Shown: positions 11,571 through 62,238 of the stretch, piece by piece
How the letters are laid out: the number at the start of each line of letters is the position of its first letter
Position numbering within the stretch: position 1 is the stretch's first letter
Source: an uncultured bacterium
GTDB taxonomy: Bacteria; Oederibacteriota; Oederibacteriia; Oederibacteriales; Oederibacteriaceae
DNA: 64,000 nt
Direction of reading: 5' to 3'
Assembly (NCBI GenBank): GCA_965112635.1
Contig: OZ218778.1
Location: 1,792,001-1,856,000 of the forward strand
Position numbers and translations under genes: made by a program
The notes under the pieces: generated by a model
Seen by the model: only the letters and a program-made list of their open reading frames with translations
Databases searched by the model: none
What the model was told of the DNA's origin: nothing

Positions 11571-11759
11571 AAAATTCCCTGCGGTGTTCGTGATGAAATG
11601 ACGAGTTTTGAGCCAACACCTTTTTGGAAGGGACCCGACCTCTAAAAGCAGTGTGCATACCTTGACTCAGGTTGAGGCAGCCTAATGCTTTTTCGGGGGT
11701 ACCCACTTATTCATTAAGGTTCAAAAACCAAGTTTCACACGGCACAGGTGGGGAATTTT
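11571..11759 (+). ncRNA. ssrS: 6S RNA
   Basis: About 190 nt intergenic; closing stem AAAATTCCC...GGGAATTTT, 5' CCCTGCGGTGTTCG, internal TTTTGAGCC/GGTTCAAAA pairing; zapA upstream and 5-FTHF cyclo-ligase downstream match known 6S synteny. Confidence 0.85.
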
Positions 11760-18608: not shown

Positions 18609-18637
18609 TTGACAAACGGTATTATGACAAGTAATAT
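18609..18637 (+). promoter_or_regulatory. sigma70-type promoter heading the motor locus
   Basis: TTGACA(18609-18614)-17 bp-TAATAT(18632-18637). Confidence 0.55.
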
Positions 18638-18735
18638 TCATTCAATACAGTAATTCATATTGTAAAATCAGCGTTTTCTGTTGTTTGGTTGAGTGCGTGG
18701 GGAAGTATTTTCCCTGAAAAAATAAAAAAGGGAAA

Positions 18736-19095
18736 GTGAAGGGCGTGAAAAAAGCTGATGAAATCAAAAGACCTCTGAGTTTTGCGACAGGCGAAAAACG
18801 AGAGGCCTTTAGTGCTTTGATCAGGCTTCTCCAAAATGGCGACTGTACTCCTGAAGAACTCACCAAGTATATACTTTCCCAAAAGCAATCTCAGGAACAA
18901 TCCGAAGAAACAGAAATCCCCGCTTCCCGGACATTCCATTTTGGATCCGATTATAGGACTAAAGAGCGAGCCTTTACTCATTTTGAGCATATGCCCCGGA
19001 TGGCCAAGCCAAAAGTTAATTATTTCAACTGGACGGTATTCTTCTTCTTTCTTTTCATGACCATCTTTATACTTCGCAATTTTATTTTTCGATGA
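18736..19095 (+). CDS. Hypothetical small membrane protein with one C-terminal TM helix
   Basis: GTG after AAGGG; hydrophobic WTVFFFFLFMTIFIL; first gene of the motor operon. Confidence 0.5.
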   Translation: MKGVKKADEIKRPLSFATGEKREAFSALIRLLQNGDCTPEELTKYILSQKQSQEQSEETEIPASRTFHFGSDYRTKERAFTHFEHMPRMAKPKVNYFNWTVFFFFLFMTIFILRNFIFR

Positions 19096-19105
19096 GGATA
19101 AAACA

Positions 19106-20770
19106 GTGAGCTTTATCAAAGATTGTGACAACTGGCTGCGCTTGGGAAAAATGCTTACAGGCTGGTTGTTGTTTGTGAGCATTTTCTTTATGACCAGCAT
19201 CTACGCTTTGGACTTAACCCATGGTGACCTGTTGGTCGGAAAGTTGCAATATGAAAGGGAATTAGAAAGAAGGATACAGTCCATATTGATCTCCACGGTT
19301 GGTCCTCAAAAGGCGAAAGTTTCGGTGACCCTGGAGGTCAACAGCGAAGTCGTCTCCAGCAAGGAGGAAACAATCCATTCCGAGACCACCAGCCAGACCA
19401 TTGTATTGAGCAACGGCATCCAAGAGGAGAACTTTGACAATCCTGAGGCGGGGACGGGTGGTCCAGGCAAGGAAGGCAGCGCCAATCAGGCTAGCAGCAA
19501 TGTCTTGGAAGAAACCCGGACCACCAAAGAAACCTTGTCGATGCCTTCCAATTTGATCAAAAAGCTGTCTATCTCTTTGTTGATCAGCGACAAGGTCCCT
19601 GATGCTCTTATCGAAAAAGCCAAGACCATCATTATGGAAGCAGTCAGTTTTAATGCCGACAGGGGGGACCAGCTATCTTTACAAAAGGTCACCTTTATTT
19701 CCGGTGCCGCAGGGGAGATGGAGCAGATCCAGGACCAAAAACAGACAGCGGATTTCTGGCTTGCTTTAACCCGGTATGCCTTGAGCTTGATCTTGGGGGT
19801 CGCTTTCCTTTTGTTTTTGTTCAGTTTGTTAAATACTTTCCGTACCCTGAAACAGGCTGAGATCAATGTGTCCGCTCAGGCCATAGCCGCCAAGGCAGCC
19901 CCTGCCGAAGGCGAGGTCGCAGGACCGGCCGGGGCCACGGCGATCCCGGCTGCGGGATTTGCTGCCGTAGGTGTCCCCGGCACAATGCTTCCCGGGATGC
20001 CTATGGGAATGCCTGGAACGATCACGGTTGGACCCCAGCGCTTCGCTTTCCTCCAGGAGAAGAATTCCAGGGCTCTTCTGCATTTGATCCAAAAAGAGCC
20101 GATCCAAACTATTGCTTTAGTGCTTTCCTATATTACCCCAGAGCAGGCAGCCGGGATCTTGCAGTCCCTCCCAGGGGAGATCCAAAGCCAGGTCGCCTCT
20201 AGGATCTCTACGATCAGTGAAATGTCACCGACGGAAGTGAACAGAATCGAGCAGGATATCAAAGAGAAGATCGATTATGTGGTGGGGGGCAGGGATTCCC
20301 TGGTCAATATCATCCAGAGCATGGGTCCCGATGGAATGAAGGCTATCATCGGCAATCTTGACAGGAGCAATCCAAAGCTGGCCGGTGAATTGAGGCCTTC
20401 ACTATTTACTTTCGATGATGTCCTCCTGTTGGATAGTTTTGCGATCCAGCAAGTTGTCAGGCAACTGAGCATTCCGGAACTGGCCATCGCTTTAAAAAAT
20501 GCCAGCGAAGAGATAAAGAACAAGGTTTTTGGGGCCTTGGCTGAGGGTGCCGCCCAGTTGCTCAGGCAGGAACTGGAGTTGATGAGGCCGCTGCCCGCTC
20601 GGCGCTATATAGAAGCGCAGCGTAAATTTATTCAGGCGGTAAGGATACTTGAACAACAGGGCGTAATCTTTGTGCAGAGAGAAGAATCGACTCCTTCCTC
20701 AGTCGGCGGCAACGACCTGGGTGGTGGGCCTGGTTTAGGGCCCGATTCTCCTTTGGCGCCGATGACCTAG
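19106..20770 (+). CDS. FliF C-terminal (ring-building) domain / FliG middle+C-terminal domain fusion
   Basis: N-terminal signal/TM; FliF-like YERELERRIQSIL..VG..AKVSV, IKKLSISLLI and AVSFNADRGDQL; one TM; FliG-like EPIQTIALVLSY, GG, LFTFDD, LAIALK and EAQRKFIQAVRILEQQG; alternative start ATG 19151. Confidence 0.82.
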   Translation: MSFIKDCDNWLRLGKMLTGWLLFVSIFFMTSIYALDLTHGDLLVGKLQYERELERRIQSILISTVGPQKAKVSVTLEVNSEVVSSKEETIHSETTSQTIVLSNGIQEENFDNPEAGTGGPGKEGSANQASSNVLEETRTTKETLSMPSNLIKKLSISLLISDKVPDALIEKAKTIIMEAVSFNADRGDQLSLQKVTFISGAAGEMEQIQDQKQTADFWLALTRYALSLILGVAFLLFLFSLLNTFRTLKQAEINVSAQAIAAKAAPAEGEVAGPAGATAIPAAGFAAVGVPGTMLPGMPMGMPGTITVGPQRFAFLQEKNSRALLHLIQKEPIQTIALVLSYITPEQAAGILQSLPGEIQSQVASRISTISEMSPTEVNRIEQDIKEKIDYVVGGRDSLVNIIQSMGPDGMKAIIGNLDRSNPKLAGELRPSLFTFDDVLLLDSFAIQQVVRQLSIPELAIALKNASEEIKNKVFGALAEGAAQLLRQELELMRPLPARRYIEAQRKFIQAVRILEQQGVIFVQREESTPSSVGGNDLGGGPGLGPDSPLAPMT

Positions 20771-20824
20771 GAAGCCGCTGCGGCGTCAGATTGACACTAA
20801 AACCAAGTTTGGAGCATATCAATA

Positions 20825-21589
20825 ATGGATAAGATGTCATTGTTTGGCTATGTCTTTGGTGTCGGTATATTCCTGCTGGGTATGCACCAGGGCGGGACGA
20901 CCAGCCTTTTCTTGAATGAGCACGCGGTGGTCCTCGTGCTGGGGGGTACCTTTGCCGCTGTCATGATCAGTTCCAGTTTTGAACAGACGGTCGTCGCGTT
21001 TAAATCCCTCAAAATATTGTTTTACCCCAAGAAGTATATGCCTGCTCAAGAAATCATCGATGTGATGGTAGGCTTGGCTGAGAAGGCCAGAAGGGATGGA
21101 GTGGGTTCTCTGCCCGAGGAGGCAAAAAAATATAATGAGCCCTTTCTTTCCAACTCGGTTCAGCTAGTGGCGGACGGTTTGCCTTCTGCAACGGTCCAGG
21201 AGATCATTGAAATGGAGATCAATAATACCCGGGACCGCCATAAGGAGAACAGCAATTTCTACCGTGTGGCCGGTATCTACGGCCCCATGTTCGGTCTATT
21301 AGGAACTTTGATCGGCATCGTCCAGGTGCTGAGGAATATTGGGGGGGACCCGACCACAGTGGGTCCGGCCATGGCTGTTGCCATTACGACGGCTTTTTAC
21401 GGGATATTTCTGGCGAACTTTGTGTGTATGCCCATCGCCAATAAACTGAAATTAAGATCAGATGAAGAACTCGCTTTAAAAGAACTTACCATCGTTGGTC
21501 TTATTGCCATCGAATCCGGAGACCTACCCTTGGTTGTGCGGAGAAAGATGGAGACTTTTCTGTCCTATTCCCAGAAAAAAAAGAAATAA
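20825..21589 (+). CDS. motA: Flagellar-type stator protein MotA/PomA
   Basis: VLGGTFAA, ARRDG, GPMFGLLGTLIGIV, GPAMAVAITTAFYG, PIANKLK. Confidence 0.92.
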   Translation: MDKMSLFGYVFGVGIFLLGMHQGGTTSLFLNEHAVVLVLGGTFAAVMISSSFEQTVVAFKSLKILFYPKKYMPAQEIIDVMVGLAEKARRDGVGSLPEEAKKYNEPFLSNSVQLVADGLPSATVQEIIEMEINNTRDRHKENSNFYRVAGIYGPMFGLLGTLIGIVQVLRNIGGDPTTVGPAMAVAITTAFYGIFLANFVCMPIANKLKLRSDEELALKELTIVGLIAIESGDLPLVVRRKMETFLSYSQKKKK

Positions 21590-21659
21590 AAAGCCGTTCA
21601 TTTGTTGACCGGGAAAGCGAAGCAATGCTTCATCCCTCGAAGGGATAAAGGAATCTGCC

Positions 21660-22355
21660 ATGGCCATCAGAAAAAGACCTCCTGAAGATATCGAATCCCT
21701 TATGCATCGCGGGACGCAATGGATCATTGTTTATGGCGACCTGATGTCCTATTTGATGATATTTTTCCTTATCTTGTTCGCATTTGCCTCGGCCAAAAAA
21801 GGGAATTTCGTGGAATCCCTCAAGGGAATTGAAAAAACCTTCGGGCAAAAAGAGAAGAAGATGTCCCAGGAGGCGATGAAAGAGGTTCAGGTCCAATCCG
21901 AGATACAAAGTTTTCTGGTCGCGCAAAACCTGACCCAAGTTGCCCGCGTGGTCATGACCGAACAAGATCTAAAAGTTATATTGACCAGCCCAGTGCTTTT
22001 TCCGTCCGGCTCGGCAGAGTTGCATCGCAAATCTTACGGTATTTTGCATACTATAGCCCAATCTATGAAAGATATGCCGAACTATGTCACGGTTGAGGGC
22101 TTCACGGATAATGTCCCAATTCATTCAGCCAAATACAGTTCCAACTGGGAATTGTCCGCGGCGCGAGCCATGCAAGTTGTCAAATACTTTATTGAAGAGG
22201 AGAAAATCTCTCCCACTCAGATCTCCTTCACGGGGTATGGCGAGTACCAGCCGGAATATACCAATGACACCGAAGAACACCGGGGATTGAATAGAAGGAT
22301 CGAGATTATCATCCACCGCATTTTGGTCCCCGTCACGGCAACAAAAAAATCGTGA
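21660..22355 (+). CDS. motB: Flagellar-type stator protein MotB (OmpA-like peptidoglycan-binding domain)
   Basis: WIIVYGDLMSYLMIFF with the conserved Asp; LFPSGSA, VEGFTDNVPI, SNWELSAARA, GYGEYQP, NRRIEI. Confidence 0.92.
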   Translation: MAIRKRPPEDIESLMHRGTQWIIVYGDLMSYLMIFFLILFAFASAKKGNFVESLKGIEKTFGQKEKKMSQEAMKEVQVQSEIQSFLVAQNLTQVARVVMTEQDLKVILTSPVLFPSGSAELHRKSYGILHTIAQSMKDMPNYVTVEGFTDNVPIHSAKYSSNWELSAARAMQVVKYFIEEEKISPTQISFTGYGEYQPEYTNDTEEHRGLNRRIEIIIHRILVPVTATKKS

Positions 22356-22371
22356 GAATGAGGGCGGGATT

Positions 22372-23862
22372 TTGAGAATAATCATATGGGTCCTAGCCGC
22401 TTTGATCGTGGGGGGTGCCGGTCTTGCGGCGGCCCAGGAAGCCCAGATGCCCAGCGCCGACATCTTTGTCCACGGTAATCTGGGGCAGCAAAAGATCGGG
22501 AATACGATCGTCATCCAATGCGATGTCTTTAACACGGGGCCTGTGGCGCATTTTTTCCCGGTCTCCGTGAAATTAATGAACGCTGCCGATAACATCGTCC
22601 TGCCGTTCCAGTCCATTTATTTAAAACCCGGGCAGTTCGGCACCTTGACTTTCAATTATGCCTTAAAACCCGACAGCACGAGCCTCGGCCTTTATGCGGT
22701 GGAGGGCAGTGTTTGGCAGGTTCAGGGGCCTAAAAAACGCCTGTCCCTCAAAACCGATACCCAAATCTTTGAGGTGGTGTTGGGTGAAGTTATGAAAAGT
22801 GTCGTCCTGGAAAATTTAACGCTCAAGGGGAAGGTCGTGGGAGGCTCCACGGTGTCTTTGAAATGCCTGGTCCGCAACACCGGCAAGGTTTCCTATACCT
22901 TCCCCGTGAGCGTTAATTTGAGCGGGAGCGATGGGCCTTTTATCGCACCGGTCAAGACCGTGACCCTGGGGCCCAAAAAGAACCAGGGCCTTTCTTTTGA
23001 TGTCAAAATACCCGCTGAAGGGATAGAGCCTAACGCGGTTTTGAGGGTCGTCGCCTGGGATAGGAAGGACGAGAAGGGAAAGTTGCTCATGCCTTACGCT
23101 GACGCCGTCATATCCTTGGAGACAGCCAGCCAGACCTCGGTGGAGGCGTCTTTTGACGGCGAGATAGGGGACCAGCCCCGGGGCAAGACGTTTACTATTG
23201 CTTGCAAGATTAAAAATAACGGCGGCACCCGATTTGAGTTCCCCGTCAAGCTGGATATTTTAGATTCTTCTGATGAACTGGTCGCGACCCCTAAACCTAA
23301 AAAAGTCCTTTTAAAACCAGGGGAAACGAAAAGGATCGGCTTCAGCACCGCGATCAAAGAGGTGGGTGCTTACCAAGCTGTGGTGAGTGTTTGGAAAGAA
23401 AGACGCGGACCCGACAGTTTTGTCGATAAGCTTACGGAGGAGGAACAGAATTTTTCGATTGCCAACGAAGCCACAGGAGGGGCTGAGCAGCAGGGGATGG
23501 ACCTCGGAGTCGGCGAGACCCCTTCCGTGGCCCCGCCTGCGGTGAAATTGATGGACATCATGCTGGCAACATCCCAGGACCAAAAAACACCGGTCAAGGC
23601 CCAGGTGTCCGATAAATTGGGGGCGGTTTCCTGCCGCCTCTATTACCGCCTGAGCACCGAAACAAATCCTGATTTTGTGGAGATGAACCTTTTTTCTGGA
23701 GATGCCAAGAGTGGAGTATGGGTGGGCGAGGTGGATCTCTCCAGACTTTCTGGAAAAATAATTTTTTACGCGGAAGCGGCCAATACAGAGTCCGTGCTAG
23801 GTCGATCCAAAGAATACAGTATTGCCAAGATGGCTACTCCGAAAAACAAACCCAATAAATGA
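22372..23862 (+). CDS. Secreted protein with three tandem Ig-like (CARDB/NEW3-like) repeats and a C-terminal Ig domain
   Basis: Signal peptide ending AAA-QEA; three repeats of C.V.N.G....FPV and L.PG....F. Confidence 0.65.
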   Translation: MRIIIWVLAALIVGGAGLAAAQEAQMPSADIFVHGNLGQQKIGNTIVIQCDVFNTGPVAHFFPVSVKLMNAADNIVLPFQSIYLKPGQFGTLTFNYALKPDSTSLGLYAVEGSVWQVQGPKKRLSLKTDTQIFEVVLGEVMKSVVLENLTLKGKVVGGSTVSLKCLVRNTGKVSYTFPVSVNLSGSDGPFIAPVKTVTLGPKKNQGLSFDVKIPAEGIEPNAVLRVVAWDRKDEKGKLLMPYADAVISLETASQTSVEASFDGEIGDQPRGKTFTIACKIKNNGGTRFEFPVKLDILDSSDELVATPKPKKVLLKPGETKRIGFSTAIKEVGAYQAVVSVWKERRGPDSFVDKLTEEEQNFSIANEATGGAEQQGMDLGVGETPSVAPPAVKLMDIMLATSQDQKTPVKAQVSDKLGAVSCRLYYRLSTETNPDFVEMNLFSGDAKSGVWVGEVDLSRLSGKIIFYAEAANTESVLGRSKEYSIAKMATPKNKPNK

Positions 23863-23902
23863 TCCGGAATCAGGATACAGGCATCGGCCTTAGGGGTGAA
23901 TC

Positions 23903-24580
23903 ATGAAGACAAGGTCAAAAAATATTTCAATGGAATTATCAATCAGCCTTTGTTTTCTTGTTTTGTTCTGCTTGTCCGCAGAGCTATGGGGCGCCCAGCC
24001 CAGCGCGACACCATTTTCCCCGCAGTCGGATAATGACTACGAACAAAATTACAACGAAGCGATGTCCTTTTACAATGCGGGATTGTTGGATAAGGCCAAG
24101 GCCAGCTTTCAAAAGGTGATCAAGATAAGACCAACGGCCGGAGCCTATCATTATCTGGGCATGATCAGCCAAAAAAAGAACCAGGTCAAAGACGCCATCT
24201 GGCAATGGAAGCAGGCTTTAAACTTGGAGCCGCGACTGGCTGTGGTCTGTTTTAATATCGGGTTGGCTTATGGTTCGTTGAAGCAAGTGGACGAACAGAT
24301 TAAATGGTATAAAAAGGCAGTGGCTTTAAATCCGAAATATTCAAAAGCATGGAACAATCTCGGTTCAGTGTATCTTGAGAAGAAGAGGACCACCGATGCA
24401 TTAAATGCCTTTAGGACCTCGTTGAAAACCAATCCCCATTATGCTGTGGCCGCGGAGAATCTGGCCCTGGTCTATGAAAAGATGGGTCGTCACATTGAAG
24501 CCAAGAAGGAATGGAAATACGCCGCTTCGATAGAGACGAGGCCTGAGTGGAAAAAGGTTTTGGCAGCCAGAGCCAAGTAA
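23903..24580 (+). CDS. Secreted tetratricopeptide repeat protein
   Basis: Signal peptide; about 5 TPRs (AYHYLG, FNIGLAY, AWNNLGSVY, ENLALVY). Confidence 0.85.
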   Translation: MKTRSKNISMELSISLCFLVLFCLSAELWGAQPSATPFSPQSDNDYEQNYNEAMSFYNAGLLDKAKASFQKVIKIRPTAGAYHYLGMISQKKNQVKDAIWQWKQALNLEPRLAVVCFNIGLAYGSLKQVDEQIKWYKKAVALNPKYSKAWNNLGSVYLEKKRTTDALNAFRTSLKTNPHYAVAAENLALVYEKMGRHIEAKKEWKYAASIETRPEWKKVLAARAK

Positions 24581-24667
24581 TGAGCTAGCTAGATTCCTTT
24601 GGTTTTATCCTTTCAATTTTGTTTTTCCTTTATTTACAACCCTTTTATTAAATCCTTTTCTTAAATT

Positions 24668-24683
24668 TGTGACCAAAATCACA
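24668..24683. promoter_or_regulatory. CRP/FNR-family-like operator
   Basis: TGTGA-CCAAAA-TCACA matches the TGTGA-N6-TCACA consensus and sits in an AT-rich intergenic region upstream of the PorV-like gene. Confidence 0.5.
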
Positions 24684-24832
24684 CCAAAAAAGTGAAGAAA
24701 TCAAGGGAATTATCCTGGTTTATCCGCTAAAATTTCCTATAACAATTTATAAAAAATCGAAAAAGCCGGCCCAATGCGCGAGCTTGGGTGGGAAAACTAT
24801 CCTCCTATAATTTAGGAACAAGGGGTATACCG

Positions 24833-25768
24833 GTGGCTGATATACATAAAGAAAAAGATATTCTTCTTTTACCCCTTCTCATTACTTTTCTTGCCCTGAC
24901 TTGCCTCATCTTCATCCCTGTCCTCGTGTCCGCTGAAGGAAATACTGCCGCTCAATTTTTAAAGATCCCTATCTCAGCCCGTCCAGCCGCCATGACTGCT
25001 TTTGGAGCCGTCTCTGACGACGTGAACGCCTTGCTTTATAACCCGGCCGGCTTATCCCAATTGTCCCAAAACGAGTTCTCCCTCTCCTATGTTAAATATT
25101 TCACCGACACAAACATGGCATTTTTGGGACTGGCTGTCCCGCTCGCGCACATCGGCACTTTTGGTCTTGGCGTCACATACCTGAGCGTCCTGAATATTGA
25201 CGCCAGGGACGCGCAGGAGAACCAGGCCGGAAGTTTTGGGAGCACGGATTGGGCCGTCACTTTGTCCTACGCCAAGGAAAACCTATGGGGCAACCTGAAT
25301 GCAGGGGCAAGCCTTAAGGTGGTGGGGGAGACTATCGATGCCACAAGCGCAAACGGGCTGGCCGGCGATGTGGGGGTCCTTTGGATCGGTAAAGAGCCGA
25401 GGGCTTCGATAGGACTGGAAGTGGAAAATGTCGGGACCGGCCTGCAATTCATCAATGTCAGTGATCCCTTACCCTTGGGAGTTGTTCTATCAGGTGCTTA
25501 CTGGCCAGTGGAACAGATAGTCGTCGGTACGGATGTGGACATGTATGTGCTGGAGAACAAGACCTATGTGTCCCTGGGCGGGGAAGACTGGCTGACCAAA
25601 GAGTTCGCTCTCAGGCTTGGTTACAAGTTCGGGACCGATCTGGGCCCGCTTTCCGGTTTGACCGGTGGGATAGGGCTGGCCATGGCGGGTTACAGCGTGG
25701 ACTATGCCGCTGGAGATGCCGGAGACCTGGGCACACTGCACCGGGTTTCTTTGGGAATAAAATTTTGA
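24833..25768 (+). CDS. PorV/PorQ-family (FadL-like) outer-membrane beta-barrel
   Basis: AQFLKIPISARPAAM..AF.AVSDDVNALLYNPAGL signature, NVGT, DPLP, LRLGY, DYA, LGTLHRVSLGIKF with a C-terminal Phe; start at 24788 or 24833. Confidence 0.85.
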   Translation: MADIHKEKDILLLPLLITFLALTCLIFIPVLVSAEGNTAAQFLKIPISARPAAMTAFGAVSDDVNALLYNPAGLSQLSQNEFSLSYVKYFTDTNMAFLGLAVPLAHIGTFGLGVTYLSVLNIDARDAQENQAGSFGSTDWAVTLSYAKENLWGNLNAGASLKVVGETIDATSANGLAGDVGVLWIGKEPRASIGLEVENVGTGLQFINVSDPLPLGVVLSGAYWPVEQIVVGTDVDMYVLENKTYVSLGGEDWLTKEFALRLGYKFGTDLGPLSGLTGGIGLAMAGYSVDYAAGDAGDLGTLHRVSLGIKF

Positions 25769-25781
25769 AAGGGCAGGCTGA

Positions 25782-34700: not shown

Positions 34701-37004
34701 TCAGCTACGAGCACGGCTACCCAGACGGTTACAAATACAGCCACCCAGACAGCGACCAGTACGGCGACGAATTCAGCGACTGAAACGGTTACCGGCACGA
34801 TCACCCAAACCGCCACAGCCACCAATACCATAACGAATACTGCGACGGCCACGGCGACCAGCACGATTACCCAGACCACCACAGCCACGAATACGGCTGT
34901 ATTCACAGGGACCAATACGGATACGAGTACGGCTACCCTGACGGTCACCAATACGGATAGCCAGACGGCTACGGCTACAGCCACCCAGTCGGCTACCGCC
35001 ACGACCACGGCAACGGCGACCTATACCGGGACCATTACCAACACGGCTACGGAAACCGCGACCGCGACCCTGACGCTCTCCACCACCGAGACTGCCACCT
35101 CGTCCTTGACCCAGACGATTACGCTGACTGCTACCGCCACCAACACGGCCACCGAGACTATGACCACCACGGCAACCCTGACCTCCACGGTAACAGGGTC
35201 CCAGACCGTGACCGCTACGGAAACCCTGACCGCTACGATCACTTTGACCTTTACGGACACGCCAGTCAATACCGGCACAGCCACCGTGACCGCGACCTAT
35301 ACGGCGACCAATACGGTCAGCCCGTCTGCGACATACACCGCGACTGTGACGGCATCGGGCAGCCCTACAGTCACGGCGACCATAACCCAGACCATGACCC
35401 AGACCATGACGATGACCGTTTCGCCGACAGCGACTGATTCAGGCACTCCGACCATAACCAATACCCAGAGCCAGACCGCCACCATCACTCTGACCTCTAC
35501 CGTGACTTTGACGGGCACCCAGACACAAACACCCTCCCAGACCTTTACCCCGGGCGGGTCCACAGCGCCGGGAGGATTGACCATCACCGCCCAGCTCAAT
35601 CAGGAAATTGACCTCAAATGGAATGCCGCGATACAGGGTTATTACCGCATCACCAACTATAAGATTTATAGGAACGTTGGAGTGCCGGGTCCGCCTTGGC
35701 TGAACTCTTTCCAGGTCAACTCAACACAATTGTCCTATCAGGACCACAACGTGACGAACGGGACCCTTTATTACTACACCGTGGCTGCGGTAGACAGTCA
35801 ACTTAACGAAGTGGCAGCATTCCCCGTCTATGGGACGCCGCAAAATATCGTTGATCCCGCTCAAAATCTTGCGGCTTCCTGCGGGAGCGGCGGCATTACC
35901 CTTACCTGGAACGAGCCCTATGGGGGCAGCAGAACATTGAACTATTTCAATGTATTCCGTTCAACCACTCCGGGGGGGCCATATCCCATTACCGTAACAG
36001 CGGTTACTTATACTTCAGCAGGCTATGCCGATTCTTGCCTGGATCCCTACGCTCCCAACGGGATGACCATTTATTACATTGTGATTACGTATGATAATGC
36101 CGGTAATCCCAGCACAGGGTCCAACGAAGCCAGCGTGGTCAACACCAAATCTTTGGATGGCTATGTTTACAAAACCGACGGGAGTACTCCGATTTCAGCA
36201 GTTTCTGTTTACGCCTATCTGAACGGCTTGCAGCAGAGTGTGGCCACGACGGATGTTACAGGTTATTACTCGTTCTTTAACCTGTCCGACGGGATCTATA
36301 GTGTCCAGGCTTCAGCCAGCACTTTGGAAGGGATATTGAGTTCGGCTTACCAGCCGGCTGCCACAGGCATGTCCGGGTTTAACTTTACCCTGGAGGTCAA
36401 CTATGTACTGAGCGTGGTGAGCGGGGCGTTGGATATGAAATCAGCCAAGGCCAAAGCCGCGTCCATTACAGCCATTCACACCTATGCCGCGGAAGGAAGC
36501 TGGATAGAATTATGGCAGAACGGCCGGTCCCTGGTTAGGGTCAACACAGACCCCAATGGGAACTTCACCATACCCAACCTGCTTTCCGGGATGTACCAGG
36601 TCAGGGGATACTATAACGGGGTGGAGGTGGTCACCCAGACCGTGACTCTGCATGCCGGCGAGCGTCTGGCTTTGAACCTCAACGGGGTCAACGGCGTGCC
36701 AGATGACCAGGTTTACGTGTTCCCCAACCCCGCCAAGACAGGCAGCGCGACCTTCAGGTTCCAGGTAGGCTTTACAAACTACGATATATCGCTGAAGATA
36801 TTCACGCTGGCCGGCGATATGGTCAGGGAGTTCACGAACACGGATATCAGCTGCAACACGACCGATTGCAGGGTCAAGTGGGACCTCACCGACGAGCAGC
36901 ACAAGGCAGTCGCCAGTGGCGTTTATTTCTATGTCCTGAAAGTGAAGGACTTGGATACCAATAACCTCTACACGGTGGTCAAGAAAGTGGCTGTGATAAA
37001 GTAA
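25782..37004 (+). CDS. 3740-aa multidomain surface/adhesin-like protein with a T9SS-type-A/FlgD-Ig-like C-terminal domain
   Basis: Signal peptide; four N-terminal repeats; CBM-like and lectin-like domains; PPC-like, carboxypeptidase-regulatory-like, IPT/TIG and FN3 domains; a Thr-X stalk; CTD VFPNP...IFTLAG.MVRE...WD.TDE....VASGVYFY...KKVAVIK. Confidence 0.85.
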   Translation: MKLEGMLKKIGKAVVLALVLGLGMMPLAYAGTRIKTVEFFLGQYEMGQVNLIPALEFDTPSKTIALPESSIVVRSAWVDMHFVSQDQTNFEANFTAVTLTAGSAIGFASTSKFAAATDSHDNAYHVRYDFTSALQTLTTGQWNTGQSVQAKIKFFAATNFHAVKLYITYEYDDTSATQLKTVRFPLDSMVGDLTVADLPCTVMIPPAERSSPGYSLKDAWFEVHGQMDYISGAMTVTAQIYQSGTPQGSPSQGGCIPLITGNANFEWTYFYDNTANLALDGTTQSLRLTAKMGSFLHPGGELVVTYQATNDVMGALKTVEIPLAQGVLANQGPATFTILNYLQDSGANIQKMWARVRGVCNVNTYSAITITGVANGTPTGQFAYEMFSSGGGSDTMNEYELIYEMTQPYANPMTVTLTATGGSSPSAVLLITYGWNKNQNGHEFKTHRQLIGQETSPFLSGTVGNVTVYAPETNTKTKQAAYADWTYFADANSTNWWVSTTISAGSGMAPAYAALDNSYKQTEGINPDLSSAVSVLNASNGPYSFNRSGFVIGMMGGDMIVTYDVAFPTSTPTSTPPPSTSTPTTSPTRTATVTPTGTATTTPTSTSTRTATNTVTPTSTSTTTVTLSQTASVTPSLTITPTGTQTLTQTYTAGPSQTATMTPTSTTTMTVTATPSATLTMTTTVTQTATPNGGGTTMLDAMTGFSLGSDPCGYFPLPSGSITLSKNSSNYYDCCNSLQISNLTSTGTMVQIKVEDITGSPQDWSCYSSVSFWIMATTSGVQYRIGLRDNSSNWTWSSTSPLTCPTSWTQVTVQLQMLGNPTGYDGFKSGYLGPNDFSQLTCVEIECDTANATILMNDLALEGSPCTPSPTPSGSTYTYSYTYTYTTPPTNTNTNTPTPSSATLYLLNTTTGDSSLWYMDKTNPSPSTDTTTILSTGTTAAGNYFLVEPGVANSTSSGTVLPTTFSQMGWRSPNTSGGTISAGNWTVNVSLTNKAARSHKGYVWVRFWKSSNPDGSAATALSPWNESPNLLSFPASVTTLADTFNVSMPLVTLNNEYLFAEYLWLIQTAGLSNTGLKFVANEATGETLVLPGFITFTQTPTLTMTPTVTATPGGGSQVFYNGEPGGGFSDADCGGACDYIDTGGGHGGAVTEDGASAHSGSYGFDFTYNTSAADTDGYFSWTWTTNYPSRAININSYDTVSFWIKSNSTRNTDTLFFYLFDINNVATSSLDIEPYIAGGGPVNLSWKQVSIPLWAFTYGTFNKTQAAGFEIDLSDSALTGPVTLHMDDGYFMFSGVGTPTTTPTPTATPNGSCPNNPAMSNISIGVGSGYSNYNAGTYTVNGMGNGVTNSADSFDLDYLSVTGNSITMVARVTGATYNSGITIRNSTGNAAALVALSMNNSGMLYCLYRYNDGMVANSTYYGTYSFPYYLKIIRYGSSNFDLQISADGNTWNELTFLNGVSLGSTVAVGLETWDGTDTVTATGTFDNVCIQSSGGVSTPTYTQTLTPTPSGPTNTITNTFTITNTITPSFTPVGATYTNTPVSCGWSEALLSPAEQPWQSGYNDTQPGTNAPYPVAGVANLGQGIANFGCGQGYIATNSDQDVYQFRILSSDINNGTCTNMLKIVFTPPSTSDSYYCNLYHWSGSSWQSSNSHSGGSAMTFYCDLSAGGNQDFYMVIGSQSGSDQGHPYVVQMSMLQTGTISGVVTAVGVGASGSSGIGVSACDSQSNSFGGSSTNSSGAYTVRVPINTTVSKITATRGWYYGCASDWSYGTSVLNYGAGEVLASQCQSLTNQNFNVYPDAILKGNITGLTNGTSINMKISDPYGSNFSNYVQFNYNSSAPTYYEIHNAMPRTYDLSVYPSDATKAPLFFHNITVTDGLQTTQNWNFISGGSISGTISPTDPGVEVDFYEGGTNFSGDPIYTTRTASGASYFMTNMQPGSYDIKLSSGGGGPAPFYAYNSIPVTNGNNTNQPITGLNGNSTISGQVFDTAGYGAGNLTLIGYRVGDNVMQLAIPMMMVTPVGSASPYTYTLPVDTTYGGSWNIALIANLQSNSWPTFLDALANVPAGSTGQNLTTNGGHKISGMVLVGGQTFSQLGYLNNSSNLPVFIFNSSNVWRDGNSLDSLGNYISHQLPDGTYTLKLNQRFLSTAQISPTLAGVDLYNQNFNLTVDPTQDIFYPYASQLYPANNMTILNSQPTISASLSDGTLGTAIQNISTKIDGGTVGNTFNSGVVSFSPAAALSGGSHSAEVKFSDSASPSAHSQDEVWTFSIATSTNTPSSTLTSTMTQTPTPLPTPVFTSINGGPSAFLGEGATAQTITIVGNNFGGTIGSVSFSGAGVTVTSYPAWNNTTITLSVNVDTYAPTNTIPDRFLTIVNGSNGGSAMTGNVFYVVPRPNASITTFMYPSNLGQGAVNATIDIFDPSGYFGSTPGSLLLDAPGHTNITSYSIQAWDSHSITMTASASSSAIPGDYGLTITASSASGSGIGVFNWFSVVPGPVVNSVSTTSNLNYLGQGAVNQIVNVYGAGFGASRGTSGSVSFSGPGITVNGYPSWSDSQIQVNVSVALNAWTTSRTVTVVNGLNYGQVTTGNIFSVSPSPNSFGFTVMTPPGLFQGASNVTINLYDPNATFGTAPGLLLLDSASGNANITSYSPNMWSANSITLTASVSSTAAFGYYALTITANVGNGSGVGAFNGFRIIPSSTATATATATATSTATVTTTATQTATQTATQTATNTATTTATSTASSTATNTATQSATATSTAAFTGTYTATGTATQTATNTNTETATSTATNTETQSATNTASQTASQTVTLTATNTATNSATATATNTVTQTATATGTAAFTGTYTATGTATQTATNTNTETATSTATNTATQTASQTTTQTTTATGTAAFTGTYTATGTATQTVTNTDTQTGTSTATNTATQTSSQTASQTASQTTTQTATNTITNTATATVTSTITQTATATDTAAFTGTYSATSTATQTVTNTATQTATSTATNSATETVTGTITQTATATNTITNTATATATSTITQTTTATNTAVFTGTNTDTSTATLTVTNTDSQTATATATQSATATTTATATYTGTITNTATETATATLTLSTTETATSSLTQTITLTATATNTATETMTTTATLTSTVTGSQTVTATETLTATITLTFTDTPVNTGTATVTATYTATNTVSPSATYTATVTASGSPTVTATITQTMTQTMTMTVSPTATDSGTPTITNTQSQTATITLTSTVTLTGTQTQTPSQTFTPGGSTAPGGLTITAQLNQEIDLKWNAAIQGYYRITNYKIYRNVGVPGPPWLNSFQVNSTQLSYQDHNVTNGTLYYYTVAAVDSQLNEVAAFPVYGTPQNIVDPAQNLAASCGSGGITLTWNEPYGGSRTLNYFNVFRSTTPGGPYPITVTAVTYTSAGYADSCLDPYAPNGMTIYYIVITYDNAGNPSTGSNEASVVNTKSLDGYVYKTDGSTPISAVSVYAYLNGLQQSVATTDVTGYYSFFNLSDGIYSVQASASTLEGILSSAYQPAATGMSGFNFTLEVNYVLSVVSGALDMKSAKAKAASITAIHTYAAEGSWIELWQNGRSLVRVNTDPNGNFTIPNLLSGMYQVRGYYNGVEVVTQTVTLHAGERLALNLNGVNGVPDDQVYVFPNPAKTGSATFRFQVGFTNYDISLKIFTLAGDMVREFTNTDISCNTTDCRVKWDLTDEQHKAVASGVYFYVLKVKDLDTNNLYTVVKKVAVIK
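33878..35550 (+). repeat. (Thr-X)n low-complexity coding repeat inside the 3740-aa protein
   Basis: About 550 codons of alternating ACN; recurring GCAGCATTCACAGGGACCTATAC (AAFTGTYT) units. Confidence 0.9.
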
Positions 37005-37053
37005 TGCCCTTAAAAAGGAAAGGGTCAGGAAGATGAGAATAAGGAGAGCTGGT

Positions 37054-39069
37054 ATGAAAAAAATCAGGATGGCCGGCTGGGGACTTTTGGCTTGGTTATG
37101 TTTGGCCGGACTTCTTCACGCTCAGACAGTGGTTACTGTTTCCAACCTGGCGACCATGGACAGCAACAATACTTACCGCACGACCTTTTCCAAGGGCGAG
37201 AACATCACCTTTCAGGTTAATGGATATTACAACGCGGTCACTTATTGCGCCTCCATAGGTTTTGCCTTTACCATCCAGGACCCCAATGCCAGGACCGTCC
37301 TGAGCCAGCAGGGAAATTCCGTCAGGGGGAACCTGGGGTATTCCGGACCCGTGGGTGCCAGTTTGTCCAACTTCCCCACTAATTCGTTCTTTACGGTCAG
37401 CGGGACTTATACTTTTACGGGCAAGGCCTCCGCTTACCATGTGCTGGACAACGCTGTCATGACCACGGTCAACCAGACCATGACTTTTAATATTACCTCG
37501 CCGCAAGTTTCGCTATCCTATCCTTTTAACGGCGCGCAGAACTTGGCAGACAACCCTTTGATATTCAGCTGGAGCGCATCCGGAGCGGTACAGTACGAGG
37601 TCCAGGTGGATATCAGCCAGGGGTTCAGCCAGCCTGTTTGGCAGTCCATCGTCTCGACCACCAGCGCTACCTACCCTCTTAACCCGCCGGCCAACCAGCA
37701 ACTAGTAGGAGGTACGATTTACTTCTGGAGGGTGCTGGCGCTCAATGCCGCTGGGGCAGTGGTCGCAACTTCCAGTCAGACCTACACCTTTACCAAGGCC
37801 CCTTCCCAGCAGACGCAGATAAGGGACATCGGCGTCATGGGGGTAGGCTTTCTCGACTGGACCGGCGCGTTATCGACCAGTGTAAATCTGCAGGCCAACC
37901 AATCCACCACTATTGCGGTGCAGGTGCAAAACAACGGCACCCAGACCGAAGTGAATGTTCCAGTCTATCTTTATTTGAACGGCAGGGCCTTGCCCATGCA
38001 GACCGTTTCCAGCCTGGCTTCAAATCAGAGCCAGTTCGTTTCCTTTGCCTATCAGTATGACGGCTCGGTGACCACCCTCAACGCTTCGGGAAGCGTTGAT
38101 TTTGCCGATGATAACCCTTCCAATAACCTCCTGACCAAAACCCTGTCCTTTAACCAGACCGCGGCCGGGACCGCAGGCACGGGTGGGCAGAGCGGGCCGG
38201 GCCAGGGCACTGCGGGCACGGGCGGGACCGGCCTGAGCGGAACAGCCGGGGTCACAGGAACCTATACCACAGGCAGTACCGGGACGACCATGACCGAACA
38301 GCAGGCCTGGGAAGTCATCAAGCAGTATGTGGGGGCCGGGGCTGGCGACCTGAGCGGGTATCAATACGCAGGGGTCCAGGGCGGGGATATTATTTCCCTT
38401 GCGCAGTCCCTGCAAGGCGGACAAAGCCAGGTCAGCGGCACTACGATGGTTTCCTCCGATAGTTCAGGAGCAGGGGTTTCTTACGCTTACACCCCTACGC
38501 CTTCTCCCACACTCGAGCCAACGCCCAATCCTTTGGCTAGTTTGCCTGCCGTACAGGCTGAGAATAAGGAGGCTCCTGTCATTGGATACGCGGAAACCAG
38601 CGGGTCTGTCCAGGTCAAAAGAGAAGGCTCTGACTGGCAGGGCCTCAGTAATAACTCCAATATTCAAGCAGGTGACCAAATCAGGACCTTGGCGGGAGGT
38701 CGCAGCACCATTTTTGGCCAAGATGGCATTAAAATGACCCTGTGGGAGAAAACCATTATTGACATTGACGTTGTCAAGAATAATGAGCAGGGCAAGACCG
38801 TAAAAAGTTTCAGGGTAGACAAGGGGAGCATGGAGGCGGACCTGCCAAAAGCCTCCAATACGGTTTATAAAGTTGAGTGTCCTTTGGGCATTCTAGATTG
38901 CGAAGAAGGTCTCGTTCAGTGTAAAGTCACGGATGCCCAGGACCTCTTCAGGTCCAAAAGAGGCAAGGTCTCGGTTTCTAACCTGATGGGCAAGGTCGAT
39001 GCCGAAGAGGGGAAGATCGTGGTTTTGACCAGCGGTAAAGCCCCCGTCATCTTTGAAGAAAAGAAGTAG
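37054..39069 (+). CDS. Secreted Ig/CARDB-domain protein with a C-terminal FecR domain
   Basis: Signal peptide (LHA-Q); CARDB-like VQNNGTQTE...DDNPSNN; Gly/Thr linker; FecR-like SGSVQVKR...GDQIRT....R; ATG 37054 after AAGGAG (alternative 37033). Confidence 0.7.
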   Translation: MKKIRMAGWGLLAWLCLAGLLHAQTVVTVSNLATMDSNNTYRTTFSKGENITFQVNGYYNAVTYCASIGFAFTIQDPNARTVLSQQGNSVRGNLGYSGPVGASLSNFPTNSFFTVSGTYTFTGKASAYHVLDNAVMTTVNQTMTFNITSPQVSLSYPFNGAQNLADNPLIFSWSASGAVQYEVQVDISQGFSQPVWQSIVSTTSATYPLNPPANQQLVGGTIYFWRVLALNAAGAVVATSSQTYTFTKAPSQQTQIRDIGVMGVGFLDWTGALSTSVNLQANQSTTIAVQVQNNGTQTEVNVPVYLYLNGRALPMQTVSSLASNQSQFVSFAYQYDGSVTTLNASGSVDFADDNPSNNLLTKTLSFNQTAAGTAGTGGQSGPGQGTAGTGGTGLSGTAGVTGTYTTGSTGTTMTEQQAWEVIKQYVGAGAGDLSGYQYAGVQGGDIISLAQSLQGGQSQVSGTTMVSSDSSGAGVSYAYTPTPSPTLEPTPNPLASLPAVQAENKEAPVIGYAETSGSVQVKREGSDWQGLSNNSNIQAGDQIRTLAGGRSTIFGQDGIKMTLWEKTIIDIDVVKNNEQGKTVKSFRVDKGSMEADLPKASNTVYKVECPLGILDCEEGLVQCKVTDAQDLFRSKRGKVSVSNLMGKVDAEEGKIVVLTSGKAPVIFEEKK

Positions 39070-39134
39070 CACTAAAAAACAGATGGTCATTAGCGGTCTG
39101 TGTATGGATAAAACTATTTAAAAGGAGGGGTTAG

Positions 39135-39879
39135 ATGAAAAAATTAAATAGAAAGGAAATGGCCTGGCTCTCAGTGGGGGTTGGGCGCGGTTTTATGCGG
39201 TTTAGCAGCCGTGTGCGTGATCCTGCCTTTAGCCGCCGCAAAAGCCGATTCGCCCATTGCCATTGTGACATTCTTGGCCGGGCCCGTGGATGTCCAGAAG
39301 GCGGGAGCCGTACAGTGGAATCCTCTAAGGCGTGGCGATTATCTCTATGAGGACCAGGTAGTCAAGACAGGCCGAAGGGCCCAAGTTGCTCTTTTTTATA
39401 CCGAGGGAACTGAGTTGAGGCTGAACGGAGACACAACCTTAAACGTGGGGACCAAGGAGAAAAAGGTCGTGTCCGCGGGGATGCAGGTAGTCCGTACCAT
39501 CAAACTTATGATCGGTGAGTTCTGGGGGCAGTTTGCCAAGACCTCTGACACCGGTGTTAGCTACGATATAAAAACCTCTTCCGCCGTGGCCGCGGTCAAA
39601 GGCACCAAGTTGGATTCTGAAGCACAATCCTCAGGCGCTTCAGCTTTTTCTGTGATGGAAGGATTGGTACAGGTCAGCAATAATTTGGGCAGCGTGAATG
39701 TCGGCGCGGGAATGAAAACCACCGTCCAAGCCGGCGGCGCGCCCACCGCACCCAAGTCGTTTGCCAGTCGTGCTGCATGGGAAGCAGGGATGAACGGGAA
39801 ATCTCCCAAAACATTGATCCTTAAGATCAAAGGAAAGGGTGGCGCGGAGAGAGAATTGAAAGTGTTCCTGCAAAAGTAA
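39135..39879 (+). CDS. Secreted FecR-domain protein with an apparent +1 frameshift near 39176-39180
   Basis: FecR motifs GPVDVQKAG, LYEDQVVKTG, AVAAVKGT and VMEGLVQV in the frame opening at 39181; the ATG with the strong RBS (39135) is in another frame. Confidence 0.7.
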
Positions 39880-39996
39880 TCCCAGGGAATAGGGCAGCTT
39901 TTTCGGCTGCCCCCCGGGTCCAGGTTTTGCGGGCGATGTTTTCCCCTCGAGGTTGGGGGGAGGGTAACTCTATGAAAATCAATACATATTACAGGA

Positions 39997-41947
39997 ATGC
40001 CATTGAAAAAAATGTTTGTTCAAAACATATTTCGAAAGATATTCATCAAACTTTTCGCAGGGGCCTTGCTGCTGTCAGTCCTCCTGTCTCCCCTGGAGAT
40101 GTGGGCGGCTGATTTTGCCAAAATCCTGCAAGCAGTCCCCGCGCCTAATCCCGTCAAAGCCGGGGATACGGTCAACTTCCAAGTGGTCATCAAGAACGTC
40201 GGGAATATAAACTGGCCAGCCGAGCAGTATTCCATCAAGGCGGAGATCTATTCCAAGGATAAAGAACTGATTCTGAATTCATCCGCCCTGGTCGGGCCTT
40301 TTGATACGGCGCCTGGAGAAACGGCCCTGCTCTACCTGCCATTCAACGTGCCGCAGGATTTTAAGGGTGAGTACTATTTCAAAATAGACCTGGACCATAA
40401 CGGCAATAGGGTGCTTACCAGTGATTTTTACAGTTTCCAAACCATTGCCGTAAACCAGGCTGAAGAGGAAGCTGTGCCTCCCTCTGTGCATTTCAGCGGT
40501 AACATCCTGGCCTCCTACAAGAACAGTTCCTTGACGAATTACTTGGGCAATATAACTCTCAACATGATGGGCCAGGTATTTCAAAAAACCGTCTCATTTA
40601 ATGGTTATGTAGATTACGACAAAACAGGCAATTATCAACTCACGCGCGGTCTTTTATCCTACTATGACGACTGGGGCGATCTTCAGTTGGGGGACGTGAC
40701 CCCTGAGCTTTCCTCGTTTACCTTGTCCAACCTGCTGATAAGAGGGGGCATGGCAGAGGTCCACACCAACAATAACTTATTTACCTGGACTGCGGTGGCT
40801 GCCCGTGTCAAATATCCCAGTGAGGGAACATCTTTGATAGCCGGGATCTATGCCCGTGATTTGTGGGGCGGCAGGGGAGCGGTGGACCTTCCTTTGTTCG
40901 GATTTGACACCATCTCCGGTGTTTCCTATTCCCATGCCTATGACGAACAGAATTCCATCAGCACCCCGGGTCCTGGAGTTTCACCCGTGGTGGACGACGT
41001 GTATGCCGTGGATACCACCTGGAAGCTTCCCAATGTGATCAAGATCACCGCGGAGGCAGCCCAAAGCCAATATAACCCCAATGCCTTAACAACAGGCGCC
41101 AATACGACCGATATCGCCTACCGGCTTAATACTACGACCCTTATTTCCTCCGCCACGGTCAACGTGGGCTACCGGAAGCGTGGGAACGAACTTTTATTCG
41201 CTGGGAAACCCGGCTAACGTGCCGGACAGAGCTGGTATTGAGTCTTCTTTGTTCTGGAACACTACTCCTTGGACCACCCTTACTGGAGTGTTCAACCAGT
41301 ACACCAATAATCTCGATCAAAATCCTCAGACCGTGACCACTACCAATGACGTGATGGGAGGCGGTCTGAACATCAATGTCACAGAATTTCCCATCCTGAG
41401 CTTAGGTTATAATCTCAATACTTTTGTAGGCCAGGATACCAAAGTTGTGGATAACGCCACCACCAGCATCAATGGGGGTCTTTCATATACTAAAAGCAAC
41501 CTCGGAGGCAACATATCCTACTCGTTATCCAATTTTGTGGACCAGACCCAGAATGCCAATAACCTGAACACTAGCAGCTTGAACCTTTCCTTAAATTCTA
41601 TTTGGTGGAATGTCCTGTCCTTGGCAGGGGGCGCTACGCAGACTTTGAGCACCAATGTCACCACCAATGATACAACCACGACGATCTCTTACAGTGTGAA
41701 TTCGAGCTACCAAATCGTTCCCAAGCAATACACGTTGAGCGCCTGGACCAGCATGACCCAGCGGAGCGATGGAATGAATACGGTCAATAATAACAACCTC
41801 TCTTGGAATCTGGAGGTAAGCGATCAGCTGAGCCCGACCGCAATGATCACCCTTGGATATTCTCTTACGCAATACTCTGATTCGATCACCAATTTGCTTT
41901 CATATAATGATAATGCTGTTAGCGCAAGGGCCAATATGGGTTTCTAA
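39997..41947 (+). pseudogene. Outer-membrane beta-barrel with an N-terminal Ig domain, split by a +1 frameshift at about 41173-41179 (ORFs 39997-41217 and 41180-41947)
   Basis: Joined reading is NVGYRK/VGTNFYSLGNP; the first half has the signal peptide and LGDVTPELSSFTLS, and the second half is amphipathic beta-strands ending in Phe; may be a sequencing error. Confidence 0.65.
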
Positions 41948-61780: not shown

Positions 61781-61836
61781 ATACACATGATTTTCGGTTG
61801 TTTTATCTGGGAGGAACAGTTGAAAGGCTGGCTTAA

Positions 61837-62232: not shown

Positions 62233-62238
62233 AGGGGG

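Follow-up and report, generated by a model that had tools for sequence, protein, structure and literature searches.

The DNA analysed here is a stretch of 64,000 nucleotides (positions 1,792,001 to 1,856,000 of contig OZ218778.1, GenBank assembly GCA_965112635.1) from an uncultured bacterium of the Oederibacteriota, called the window in the following. Between positions 18,609 and 41,947 it carries a series of genes, among them one in which parts of fliF and fliG are fused, a motA and a motB gene, and, further downstream, genes for a TPR protein, a PorV-like outer membrane (OM) barrel and a giant protein with a C-terminal domain (CTD) of the kind that type IX secretion system (T9SS) cargo carries; all coordinates are given in Table 1. 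A preliminary description, made from the letters of the sequence, had interpreted this block as a stripped-down flagellar rotor and stator repurposed to power secretion or surface movement of CTD-tagged giant proteins. The open reading frames (ORFs) on which it was built lie where it had placed them and their family assignments hold, with the exceptions mentioned below. As to its interpretation, a rotor-stator trio independent of a flagellum is supported by the present analysis, whereas the link between this trio and the PorV-like and CTD proteins rests on gene order in two lineages.

A fused FliF-FliG protein and a flagellar-type stator

The protein encoded by the first gene of the trio, hereafter mini-FliFG, consists in one chain of a first transmembrane (TM) helix, an RBM3/collar domain as in FliF, a second TM helix, a linker, and the middle and C-terminal domains of FliG (FliG MC). 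Pfam matches are found to YscJ_FliF_C (PF08345; residues 61-197, 44.4 bits, cutoff 23.8), to FliG_M (residues 322-392, 72.8 bits, cutoff 25) and to FliG_C (residues 417-521, 100.6 bits, cutoff 23.3), and the two hydrophobic windows (TM1 at 17-35, TM2 at 224-242) enclose the RBM3/collar-like domain. Two parts are absent: There is no Pfam match to PF01514 (YscJ_FliF, corresponding to RBM1/RBM2), and a separate FliG N domain is missing, as the sole FliG_N match (28.4 bits) is situated at residues 333-421, over the middle domain. The full-length models are accordingly matched in part, i.e., the fliF model TIGR00206 only at its positions 241-340 (37 bits, cutoff 129.75) and the FliG model TIGR00207 only at positions 111-331 (151.8 bits, cutoff 226.7). 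Thus, the trio announced by the preliminary description exists, and its rotor protein is not an ordinary flagellar FliF or FliG, but belongs to a separate, large family.

An AlphaFold2 model of mini-FliFG, built with 77 family sequences, reached a mean pLDDT of 77.8, with low confidence only in residues 94-132, in residues 259-303 and in the tail. In Foldseek searches the cytoplasmic half of the model matches the middle and C-terminal domains of FliG (1lkv at 5.9e-14), and the periplasmic half matches the RBM3/collar rings of FliF from Salmonella and Vibrio (7bk0, 8ftf, 6sd1) at about 1e-4, with TM-scores on the target between 0.36 and 0.58. The segment 94-132 would presumably correspond to the collar hairpin of FliF, which is ordered only in the assembled ring.

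Concerning the stator, the MotA protein matches MotA_ExbB of Pfam with 94.4 bits and possesses four TM helices. Its best NCBIfam models are PomA, MotA and MotP, all below their cutoffs (184 bits compared to 341 for PomA), and the TolQ and ExbB models reach only 23 and 17 bits, respectively. All ten PDB sequence matches listed for it are flagellar stator A subunits (9lu9 as the best with 6.4e-42; furthermore, e.g., 8ucs, 6ysf, and 8brd), and R89 and E99 of the cytoplasmic loop are invariant in all five cassette MotA proteins aligned. MotB carries a MotB_plug (39.9 bits) and an OmpA domain (74.6 bits; both Pfam), its TM residue Asp27 aligns with the TM aspartate of the MotB chain in 6ysf and 8ucs, and its best NCBIfam models are those of flagellar MotB/MotD (162.5 bits, MotD cutoff 283). 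Judged from these sequence matches, the stator is a member of the flagellar-type MotAB/PomAB proteins, which we call divergent because the NCBIfam equivalog cutoffs are not reached.

The preliminary description had noted no further flagellar or gliding genes, and this is borne out: Families of flagellin, hook, rod, export gate, FliM/N, che, GldK/L/M/N, and SprA gave 0 matches among the 42 ORFs of at least 110 aa scanned against Pfam and the 17 scanned against NCBIfam.

The mini-FliFG family and its gene neighbourhood

While a word-based protein search recovered only three full-length relatives of the fusion, and no additional ones with a 77-row profile, an exhaustive profile search gave 12,172 matches at E<=1e-3, mostly ordinary FliG. 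Of the best 150 of these, the 76 whose match ran unbroken across almost the entire profile were taken as the family set; the 74 that were dropped comprised two-stretch matches, matches starting from around profile position 150, short fragments and FliG of ordinary length, and 16 of them were scanned separately. The mini-FliFG family defined in this way contains at least 76 further clusters at 50% identity besides the window protein. Among these 77 proteins FliG_C is found in all, FliG_M in 74, and YscJ_FliF_C in 47, and the 25 families listed, out of 28 that they match, do not include PF01514. In a scan for TM helices of 60 family proteins (the first in list order, no other filter), a hydrophobic window lies between residues 52 and 280, the expected place of TM2, in 59 proteins, and one starting within the first 36 residues is found in 41. 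TPR repeats occur in 29 of the 77 proteins and are situated C-terminally, after FliG_C, in the members whose alignment was inspected. Examples are the proteins P0024, P0025, P0029-P0032, and P0034, where the TPR part would be cytoplasmic.

In an unrooted tree of FliG MC with 103 rows, a branch with an SH-aLRT value of 97 separates 79 mini-fusions from 21 FliG proteins (of ordinary length or in other fusions) together with three full-length FliF-FliG fusions, the sample of ordinary FliG being small and biased. Other natural fusions of FliG are found among P0083, P0092, P0115, P0163, and P0122; they comprise full-length FliF-FliG with or without FliG_N (P0092, P0115, and P0163), FliM-DUF4116-FliG, and FliG-PilZ.

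The family also shows specific changes at charged residues of the torque helix, which in FliG meet MotA and whose columns we take, from an alignment with T. maritima FliG, to correspond to R281, D288, and D289 of E. coli FliG. At the R281 position 68 of the 77 proteins have Gly and none has Arg or Lys, the D289 position is Glu in 57, and the D288 position is either Glu (47) or Gln (30). The Gly-Gly linker is kept (Gly in 74/77 and 73/77). In E. coli, R90 and E98 of MotA are described to pair with D289 and R281 of FliG (PMC7564593). The EHPQR motif of the FliG middle domain, reported as the FliM-binding motif (PMC6290876), retains its Glu in 64 of the 77 proteins; its Arg column contains Arg in only nine, and its His column is dominated by Pro, Ser, and Thr (51/77), with His not among the five commonest letters. 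The window protein reads E-P-I-Q where T. maritima has E-H-P-Q. As far as can be told from these columns, the FliM-binding motif is degraded in the family.

A search of genome contigs with a profile of a four-row alignment yielded six further loci with a fusion gene (L001-L006); a seventh locus (L007) from the same search is an ordinary spirochaete FliG locus, and the genome of the window itself was not among the contigs found. Among themselves the six fusions share 72-89% identity, compared to 27-29% with the window protein, and they are counted as one independent lineage. The fusions of L001-L005, as well as P0003, P0004, and P0022, end with a third hydrophobic helix. The metagenome-assembled genomes behind L001 and L003-L006 are titled 'Clostridia bacterium', yet they encode PorV-like OM barrels and T9SS-type CTDs; as OM barrels and such signals fit poorly with Clostridia, the label is probably doubtful.

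The gene order at these loci is highly regular. A gene combining a PorV-like barrel with TPR repeats (barrel-TPR) is situated directly upstream of the fusion in all six loci, and a CTD protein of fibronectin type with a T9SS CTD precedes it in all four loci with upstream DNA. A motA gene follows the fusion in the five loci that reach that far, such that a flagellar-type stator gene adjoins the fusion in every locus of sufficient extent, and in four of four loci motA is followed by a pair of motB paralogues that both contain the plug and the OmpA-like domain. Downstream of the stator, these four loci continue with genes for a histidine kinase of dCache type, for a REC-REC-GGDEF protein, and for a pair of multi-receiver proteins (positions 9197-14787 in L002, and equally in L003-L005); the motor may thus be controlled by a phosphorelay or by c-di-GMP, or may itself act in signalling. 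The two loci reaching even further also contain another barrel-TPR gene, together with a gene for a small CTD protein. Pairwise dN/dS values within this clade amount to 0.16-0.19 for the fusion, 0.06 for MotA, 0.12-0.22 for the two MotB proteins, and 0.09-0.11 for the barrel-TPR protein, such that all five genes are under purifying selection. Neither flagellar genes (in the 5-18 kb available per locus) nor, in the window and the related loci, homologues of GldL/GldM, GldK/N or SprA were found.

The barrel-TPR proteins encoded directly upstream of the fusions have about 840 aa, of which the first 320 or so form a PorV/PorQ-like barrel and the remainder consists of TPR repeats. The barrels of the related loci align to the PorV/PorQ family model from positions 6-9 to 325-326 of 326 with 52-70 bits (52-59 bits for those directly upstream of a fusion), i.e., below its cutoff of 90, and also match the PorP/SprF model (E between 1e-10 and 1e-6). 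The CTD proteins of these loci match CHU_C with 32-38 bits (cutoff 27). In a model of one barrel-TPR protein, of moderate confidence (pLDDT 68.7), 14 beta-strands form a barrel, followed by a helix of 56 residues and by helical repeats up to residue 841. Among PDB structures this model is matched best by a 345-residue chain, which we take to be PorV, in the T9SS translocon entry 6h3i; FadL-type barrels come next, and 8gl6 matches as well.

All four kinds of genes seen in this arrangement also lie within 7 kb in the window, whereas their order differs and TPR and barrel are separate genes. The barrel exceeds the cutoff of the PorV/PorQ-family model NF033709 (157 bits, cutoff 90), as had been expected from its description as PorV-like, the equivalog models for PorV and for PorQ each remaining below their cutoffs; over its full length it is 27-28% identical to the barrel parts of the related-locus proteins. 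The CTD ascribed to the 3740-aa protein is confirmed marginally: Its last 150 aa, scanned alone, match TIGR04183 with 23.4 bits (cutoff 23) and also match the CTD ends of the PorU (6.9e-13) and PorZ (5.2e-10) models, whereas in a scan of the whole protein the CTD match stays below the cutoff. The TPR protein exhibits weak, sub-threshold matches to the NCBIfam models of Tgl and GltE, and together with the barrel it may represent a split form of the barrel-TPR fusions found elsewhere. A complex prediction for the RBM3-like domain (residues 36-223, with a 77-row alignment) and the mature TPR protein gave scores of 0.00 and 0.01; as these lie below the mark of 0.32, they are counted neither for nor against binding. 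The linkage of the motor trio to PorV-like and CTD genes, proposed for the window, recurs in a clade only 27-29% identical; a lack of conserved linkage, which the preliminary description had named as refuting its proposal, is thereby countered, though weakly, from two independent lineages.

With respect to carriers, the fused FliF-FliG architecture most often has Elusimicrobiota as the commonest phylum of its clusters in a protein atlas, and also Balneolota, Bdellovibrionota, Bacteroidota, and Thermodesulfobacteriota; the barrel-TPR architecture likewise has most often Elusimicrobiota, and also Zixibacteria, Eisenbacteria, and Calditrichota. These commonest-phylum labels are leads and not ranges. 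For free-living Elusimicrobiota, including two magnetotactic ones, a preprint reports numerous homologues of motAB, flbD, and fliG and no flagellar structural genes, calls the role of motAB and fliG unclear, and suggests a possible link to twitching (bioRxiv 10.1101/2022.07.08.499144). Its motAB and fliG are probably the same genes as those of the present module; the FliF-RBM3 fusion and the family-specific residue changes are not described in its passages on these genes. Furthermore, a survey of 11,365 genomes found that 11% of the species which it classed as non-motile possess rotor but no filament proteins, and raises the possibility of another function for them (PMC12199754). Neither the FliF-RBM3/FliG fusion family nor a link between FliG and PorV was found described in the literature searched.

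Proposed work of the motor and alternative readings

The fusion gene and the two stator genes very probably constitute a flagellum-independent (autonomous) rotor-stator module. Retaining only the ring-forming RBM3/collar of FliF, two membrane helices, and FliG MC, mini-FliFG would assemble into a membrane ring with the FliG C domains in the cytoplasm and an S-ring-like collar in the periplasm, and MotA5B2 units of PomAB type, fixed to the peptidoglycan via MotB, would turn this ring by ion flow. Since RBM1/2, the FliG N domain, and an intact FliM-binding motif are lacking, the ring is expected to house no type III export gate or switch complex, and it would build neither rod nor filament. As nothing cytoplasmic or axial remains, the work of the motor would be delivered in the periplasm, where the best candidate receiver of the torque may be the long helical/TPR arm of the PorV/PorP-like OM barrels. 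If the periplasmic face of the ring engages this arm, and if the barrels hold CTD proteins, the work could serve the export of giant surface adhesins, or their positioning or movement.

Among the known systems closest to the putative motor are the rotor and stator of the flagellum, with which it shares the RBM3/collar fold, the FliG middle and C-terminal domains with their Gly-Gly linker, an acidic residue at the position of E. coli FliG D289, the four-TM MotA with its Arg/Glu pair, and a MotB that has an OmpA-like anchor besides its plug and TM Asp. There are also differences: The window fusion is devoid of RBM1/2 and of a separate FliG N domain and unites FliF and FliG in one chain, the R281 equivalent is Gly and EHPQR is degraded in the family, and no genes for FliM/N, export gate, rod, hook or filament are situated nearby.

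The gliding motor AglRQS-Glt of Myxococcus, in which a motor of MotAB/TolQR type drives OM adhesion complexes including TPR lipoproteins, differs from the present module in that it has no FliG-type rotor and that its stator is of the Tol/Exb and not of the flagellar type.

In its output the module would resemble GldLM with SprB in Bacteroidota, without belonging to the T9SS motor family. Equally to GldLM, an ion-driven motor of the inner membrane is encoded beside PorV-family OM proteins and CTD-bearing giant proteins, and the proposed work is the same (PMC8986121, PMC5562754); here, however, the stator is of the flagellar type and is accompanied by a separate, ring-forming rotor, deduced from its genes, and coupling to the OM would run through the barrel's own TPR arm instead of GldM and a GldKN ring. 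A CTD cargo gene adjoining a barrel gene is also described for pairs of T9SS cargo and PorP/SprF- or PorV-like barrels (PMC9143113, PMC12618676), whereas the present barrels are fused to around 500 residues of helical/TPR repeats or lie beside a TPR protein, and the window cargo has a type-A-like and not a type-B CTD.

Several observations weigh against such a coupling to the OM. The gene order that points to it is known from only two independent lineages. The TPR part that follows FliG_C in 29 of the 77 family members would be cytoplasmic, which the coupling model leaves unexplained, and the genes directly after the stator in the related clade point to signalling rather than secretion. PorV-like-TPR genes are frequent, as L002 and L003 each contain two within 16-18 kb and the 64-kb window likewise contains two; the adjacency of PorV-like barrel genes to the motor could therefore plausibly be due to chance. 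Seven of the ten atlas clusters nearest to barrel-TPR name Elusimicrobiota as the commonest phylum, a BLAST comparison at 1e-4 gave no match between the TPR protein of the window and the TPR parts of the related-locus proteins, and the loss of charge at the R281 equivalent could mean that stator docking is altered or lost. In view of these points, coupling of the motor to the PorV/CTD proteins falls somewhat short of being probable, and the complete proposal, a motor that drives export or surface movement of CTD-tagged giant adhesins as a second, independently built surface machine, is rather doubtful at present.

It may instead be that the motor is real and independent of a flagellum, but that its proximity to the PorV/CTD genes is incidental and its output lies elsewhere, i.e., in surface or load sensing that feeds into c-di-GMP and a phosphorelay, in support of type IV pilus movement, or in a Tol/Ton-like energisation of the envelope. 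The kinase, GGDEF, and receiver genes behind the stator in four of four related loci fit this explanation, as do the abundance of PorV-like barrel genes and the TPR tails, which could dock cytoplasmic partners; the possible link to twitching raised, with the role left unclear, in the Elusimicrobiota preprint (10.1101/2022.07.08.499144) points in the same direction. However, a barrel-TPR gene lies immediately upstream of the fusion without exception in the six loci, the PorV barrel of the window is found within three genes of the stator despite an identity of 27-29% and a different order, and the motor of the window has no signalling genes next to it. Purely incidental proximity appears rather unlikely, though it deserves consideration.

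That the genes are a part or a leftover of an ordinary flagellum encoded elsewhere in the 2.9-Mb genome is improbable. In both sequence and fold, FliG MC and MotAB indeed resemble flagellar proteins closely, full-length fusions of FliF and FliG do occur naturally (P0092, P0115, P0163), and the remainder of the source genome lies outside the inspected 64 kb. On the other hand, RBM1/2 and a separate FliG N domain are absent, the FliM-binding motif is degraded, and the family stands apart in the tree from the sampled ordinary FliG and the full-length fusions; moreover, the reading frames are intact, with dN/dS of 0.06-0.22 in six species, no flagellar gene is found in the window or in the 5-18 kb per related locus, and a set of fliG and motAB without flagellar structural genes is reported from Elusimicrobiota (10.1101/2022.07.08.499144). 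A defence against phages of the Zorya kind, based on an ion channel of MotAB type, to which the matches of MotB to ZorB models might point (PADLOC, best 74.6 bits), was rejected as extremely improbable, as MotA does not match ZorA, no ZorC, ZorD or ZorE and no other PADLOC match was obtained among the 12 block proteins, the flagellar MotB/MotD models give MotB a much higher score (162.5 bits), and a FliG rotor partner is present.

If the proposed motor exists, a flagellar rotor-stator pair works outside the flagellum as a portable unit of torque, for which the mini-FliFG family constitutes a concrete and testable case; with about 550 aa, mini-FliFG is small enough to be expressed and imaged as a ring. 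A minimal ring with stator and without export apparatus would be an intermediate or a derivative of the kind that scenarios for the origin of the flagellum need. If coupled to the OM as proposed, it would also hint at how diderms outside Bacteroidota with T9SS-type cargo might power OM processes, and flagellum-less diderms, e.g., free-living Elusimicrobiota, would gain a rotary T9SS-like apparatus for secretion or gliding. It is, moreover, a candidate for the unexplained motility apparatus of the flagellum-less magnetotactic Elusimicrobiota (10.1101/2022.07.08.499144).

Further features of the window

Table 1. Position and characteristics of the features discussed; positions refer to the window unless a related locus is named.
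Feature	Position	Strand	Remarks
Small protein, 119 aa, C-terminal hydrophobic helix	18736..19095	+	Stop 10 nt before fusion gene; membership uncertain
Mini-FliF-FliG fusion, 554 aa, proposed rotor ring	19106..20770	+	Pfam, TM windows, AlphaFold2 model, Foldseek
MotA/PomA-type stator A subunit, 254 aa	20825..21589	+	Pfam, NCBIfam, PDB sequence matches
MotB-type stator B subunit, 231 aa	21660..22355	+	TM Asp27, plug, OmpA-like peptidoglycan-binding domain
Exported protein, 496 aa, weak Ig-like/CARDB repeats	22372..23862	+	Signal-peptide-like N-terminus; 16 nt after motB
Exported TPR protein, 225 aa	23903..24580	+	TPR match
PorV/PorQ-family OM barrel, 326 aa as listed	24788..25768	+	NF033709; alternative later starts, true start may be downstream
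Giant Thr/Ser-rich surface protein, 3740 aa	25782..37004	+	Signal peptide, T9SS type-A-like CTD; 13 nt after barrel gene
CARDB+FecR protein	37033..39069	+	CARDB above cutoff, FecR 20.5 bits (cutoff 24)
FecR protein	39181..39879	+	FecR 39.8 bits, above cutoff
Two overlapping ORFs, 406 + 255 aa, no family	39997..41947	+	One protein if frame shifts near 41175-41185
Second cargo module: 4514-aa protein, 131-aa CTD protein, 550-aa PorV-family barrel-TPR	48236..63891	+	Family scans
One motA and two motB in related loci	L002 7676-9088; L003 8839-10343; L004 5555-7022; L005 5361-6806		Both motB under purifying selection

The block had been described as co-oriented and as opening with a sigma70-like promoter. 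Its genes indeed all lie on the plus strand, but this carries no information, as all family-matched ORFs in the 64 kb do so. Similarly, there is indeed a sigma70-like site at 18609, matching at 10 of 12 positions, but the region is rich in sites of this kind (18 in 8.5 kb, compared to 9.2 +/- 3.1 in shuffled sequence). A pattern of the sigma-28 type occurs four times in the whole window against 5.4 expected, i.e., without excess over chance, and scans of the block for promoters and terminators gave no usable operon boundaries.

Concerning the remaining genes of the block, the small protein in front of the fusion matches no Pfam, NCBIfam or PADLOC family and has no counterpart in the six related loci. 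The protein following MotB, described as carrying Ig repeats, is exported, but its Ig-like/CARDB matches number only three and are all sub-threshold. The second of the two proposed FecR proteins is confirmed by a match above the cutoff, whereas the FecR match of the first remains below it (Table 1). The 'large OM barrel' at the end of the block is a barrel only putatively, as it matches no family; its ORF is split by a change of frame, due either to an error in sequencing or to a true frameshift. The genes from 37033 to 41947 are probably not part of the motor system: For the FecR genes, the split protein, and also the Ig-like gene there are no counterparts in the related loci, such that the system is probably smaller than the span 18609-41947.

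Further downstream, the window contains a second cargo module. Its ORF of 4514 aa (48236-61780) consists of 48% Thr, 16% Ala, and 9.5% Asn, with short Thr-X repeats, a hydrophobic segment at its N-terminus and an end resembling a CTD; it has the look of a surface fibril of mucin-like type, and the extreme GC and AT skew of the region at 48-60 kb is due to this Thr-rich ORF. The barrel-TPR protein at 62239-63891 reaches 161.5 bits with NF033709 (cutoff 90), and its pairing with a small CTD protein matches the pair of a small CTD protein and a barrel-TPR found in L002 and L003.

The host evidently belongs to a deep, poorly sampled lineage, since the nearest relative of its PheS (7287-8264) among 5.8 billion clusters is only 59% identical, followed by others of mixed phyla at around 55%. 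No tRNA genes were found in the window; a 6S RNA (RF00013, 92.7 bits) is situated at 11573-11758, between a zapA-like gene and an mgsA-like ATPase gene.

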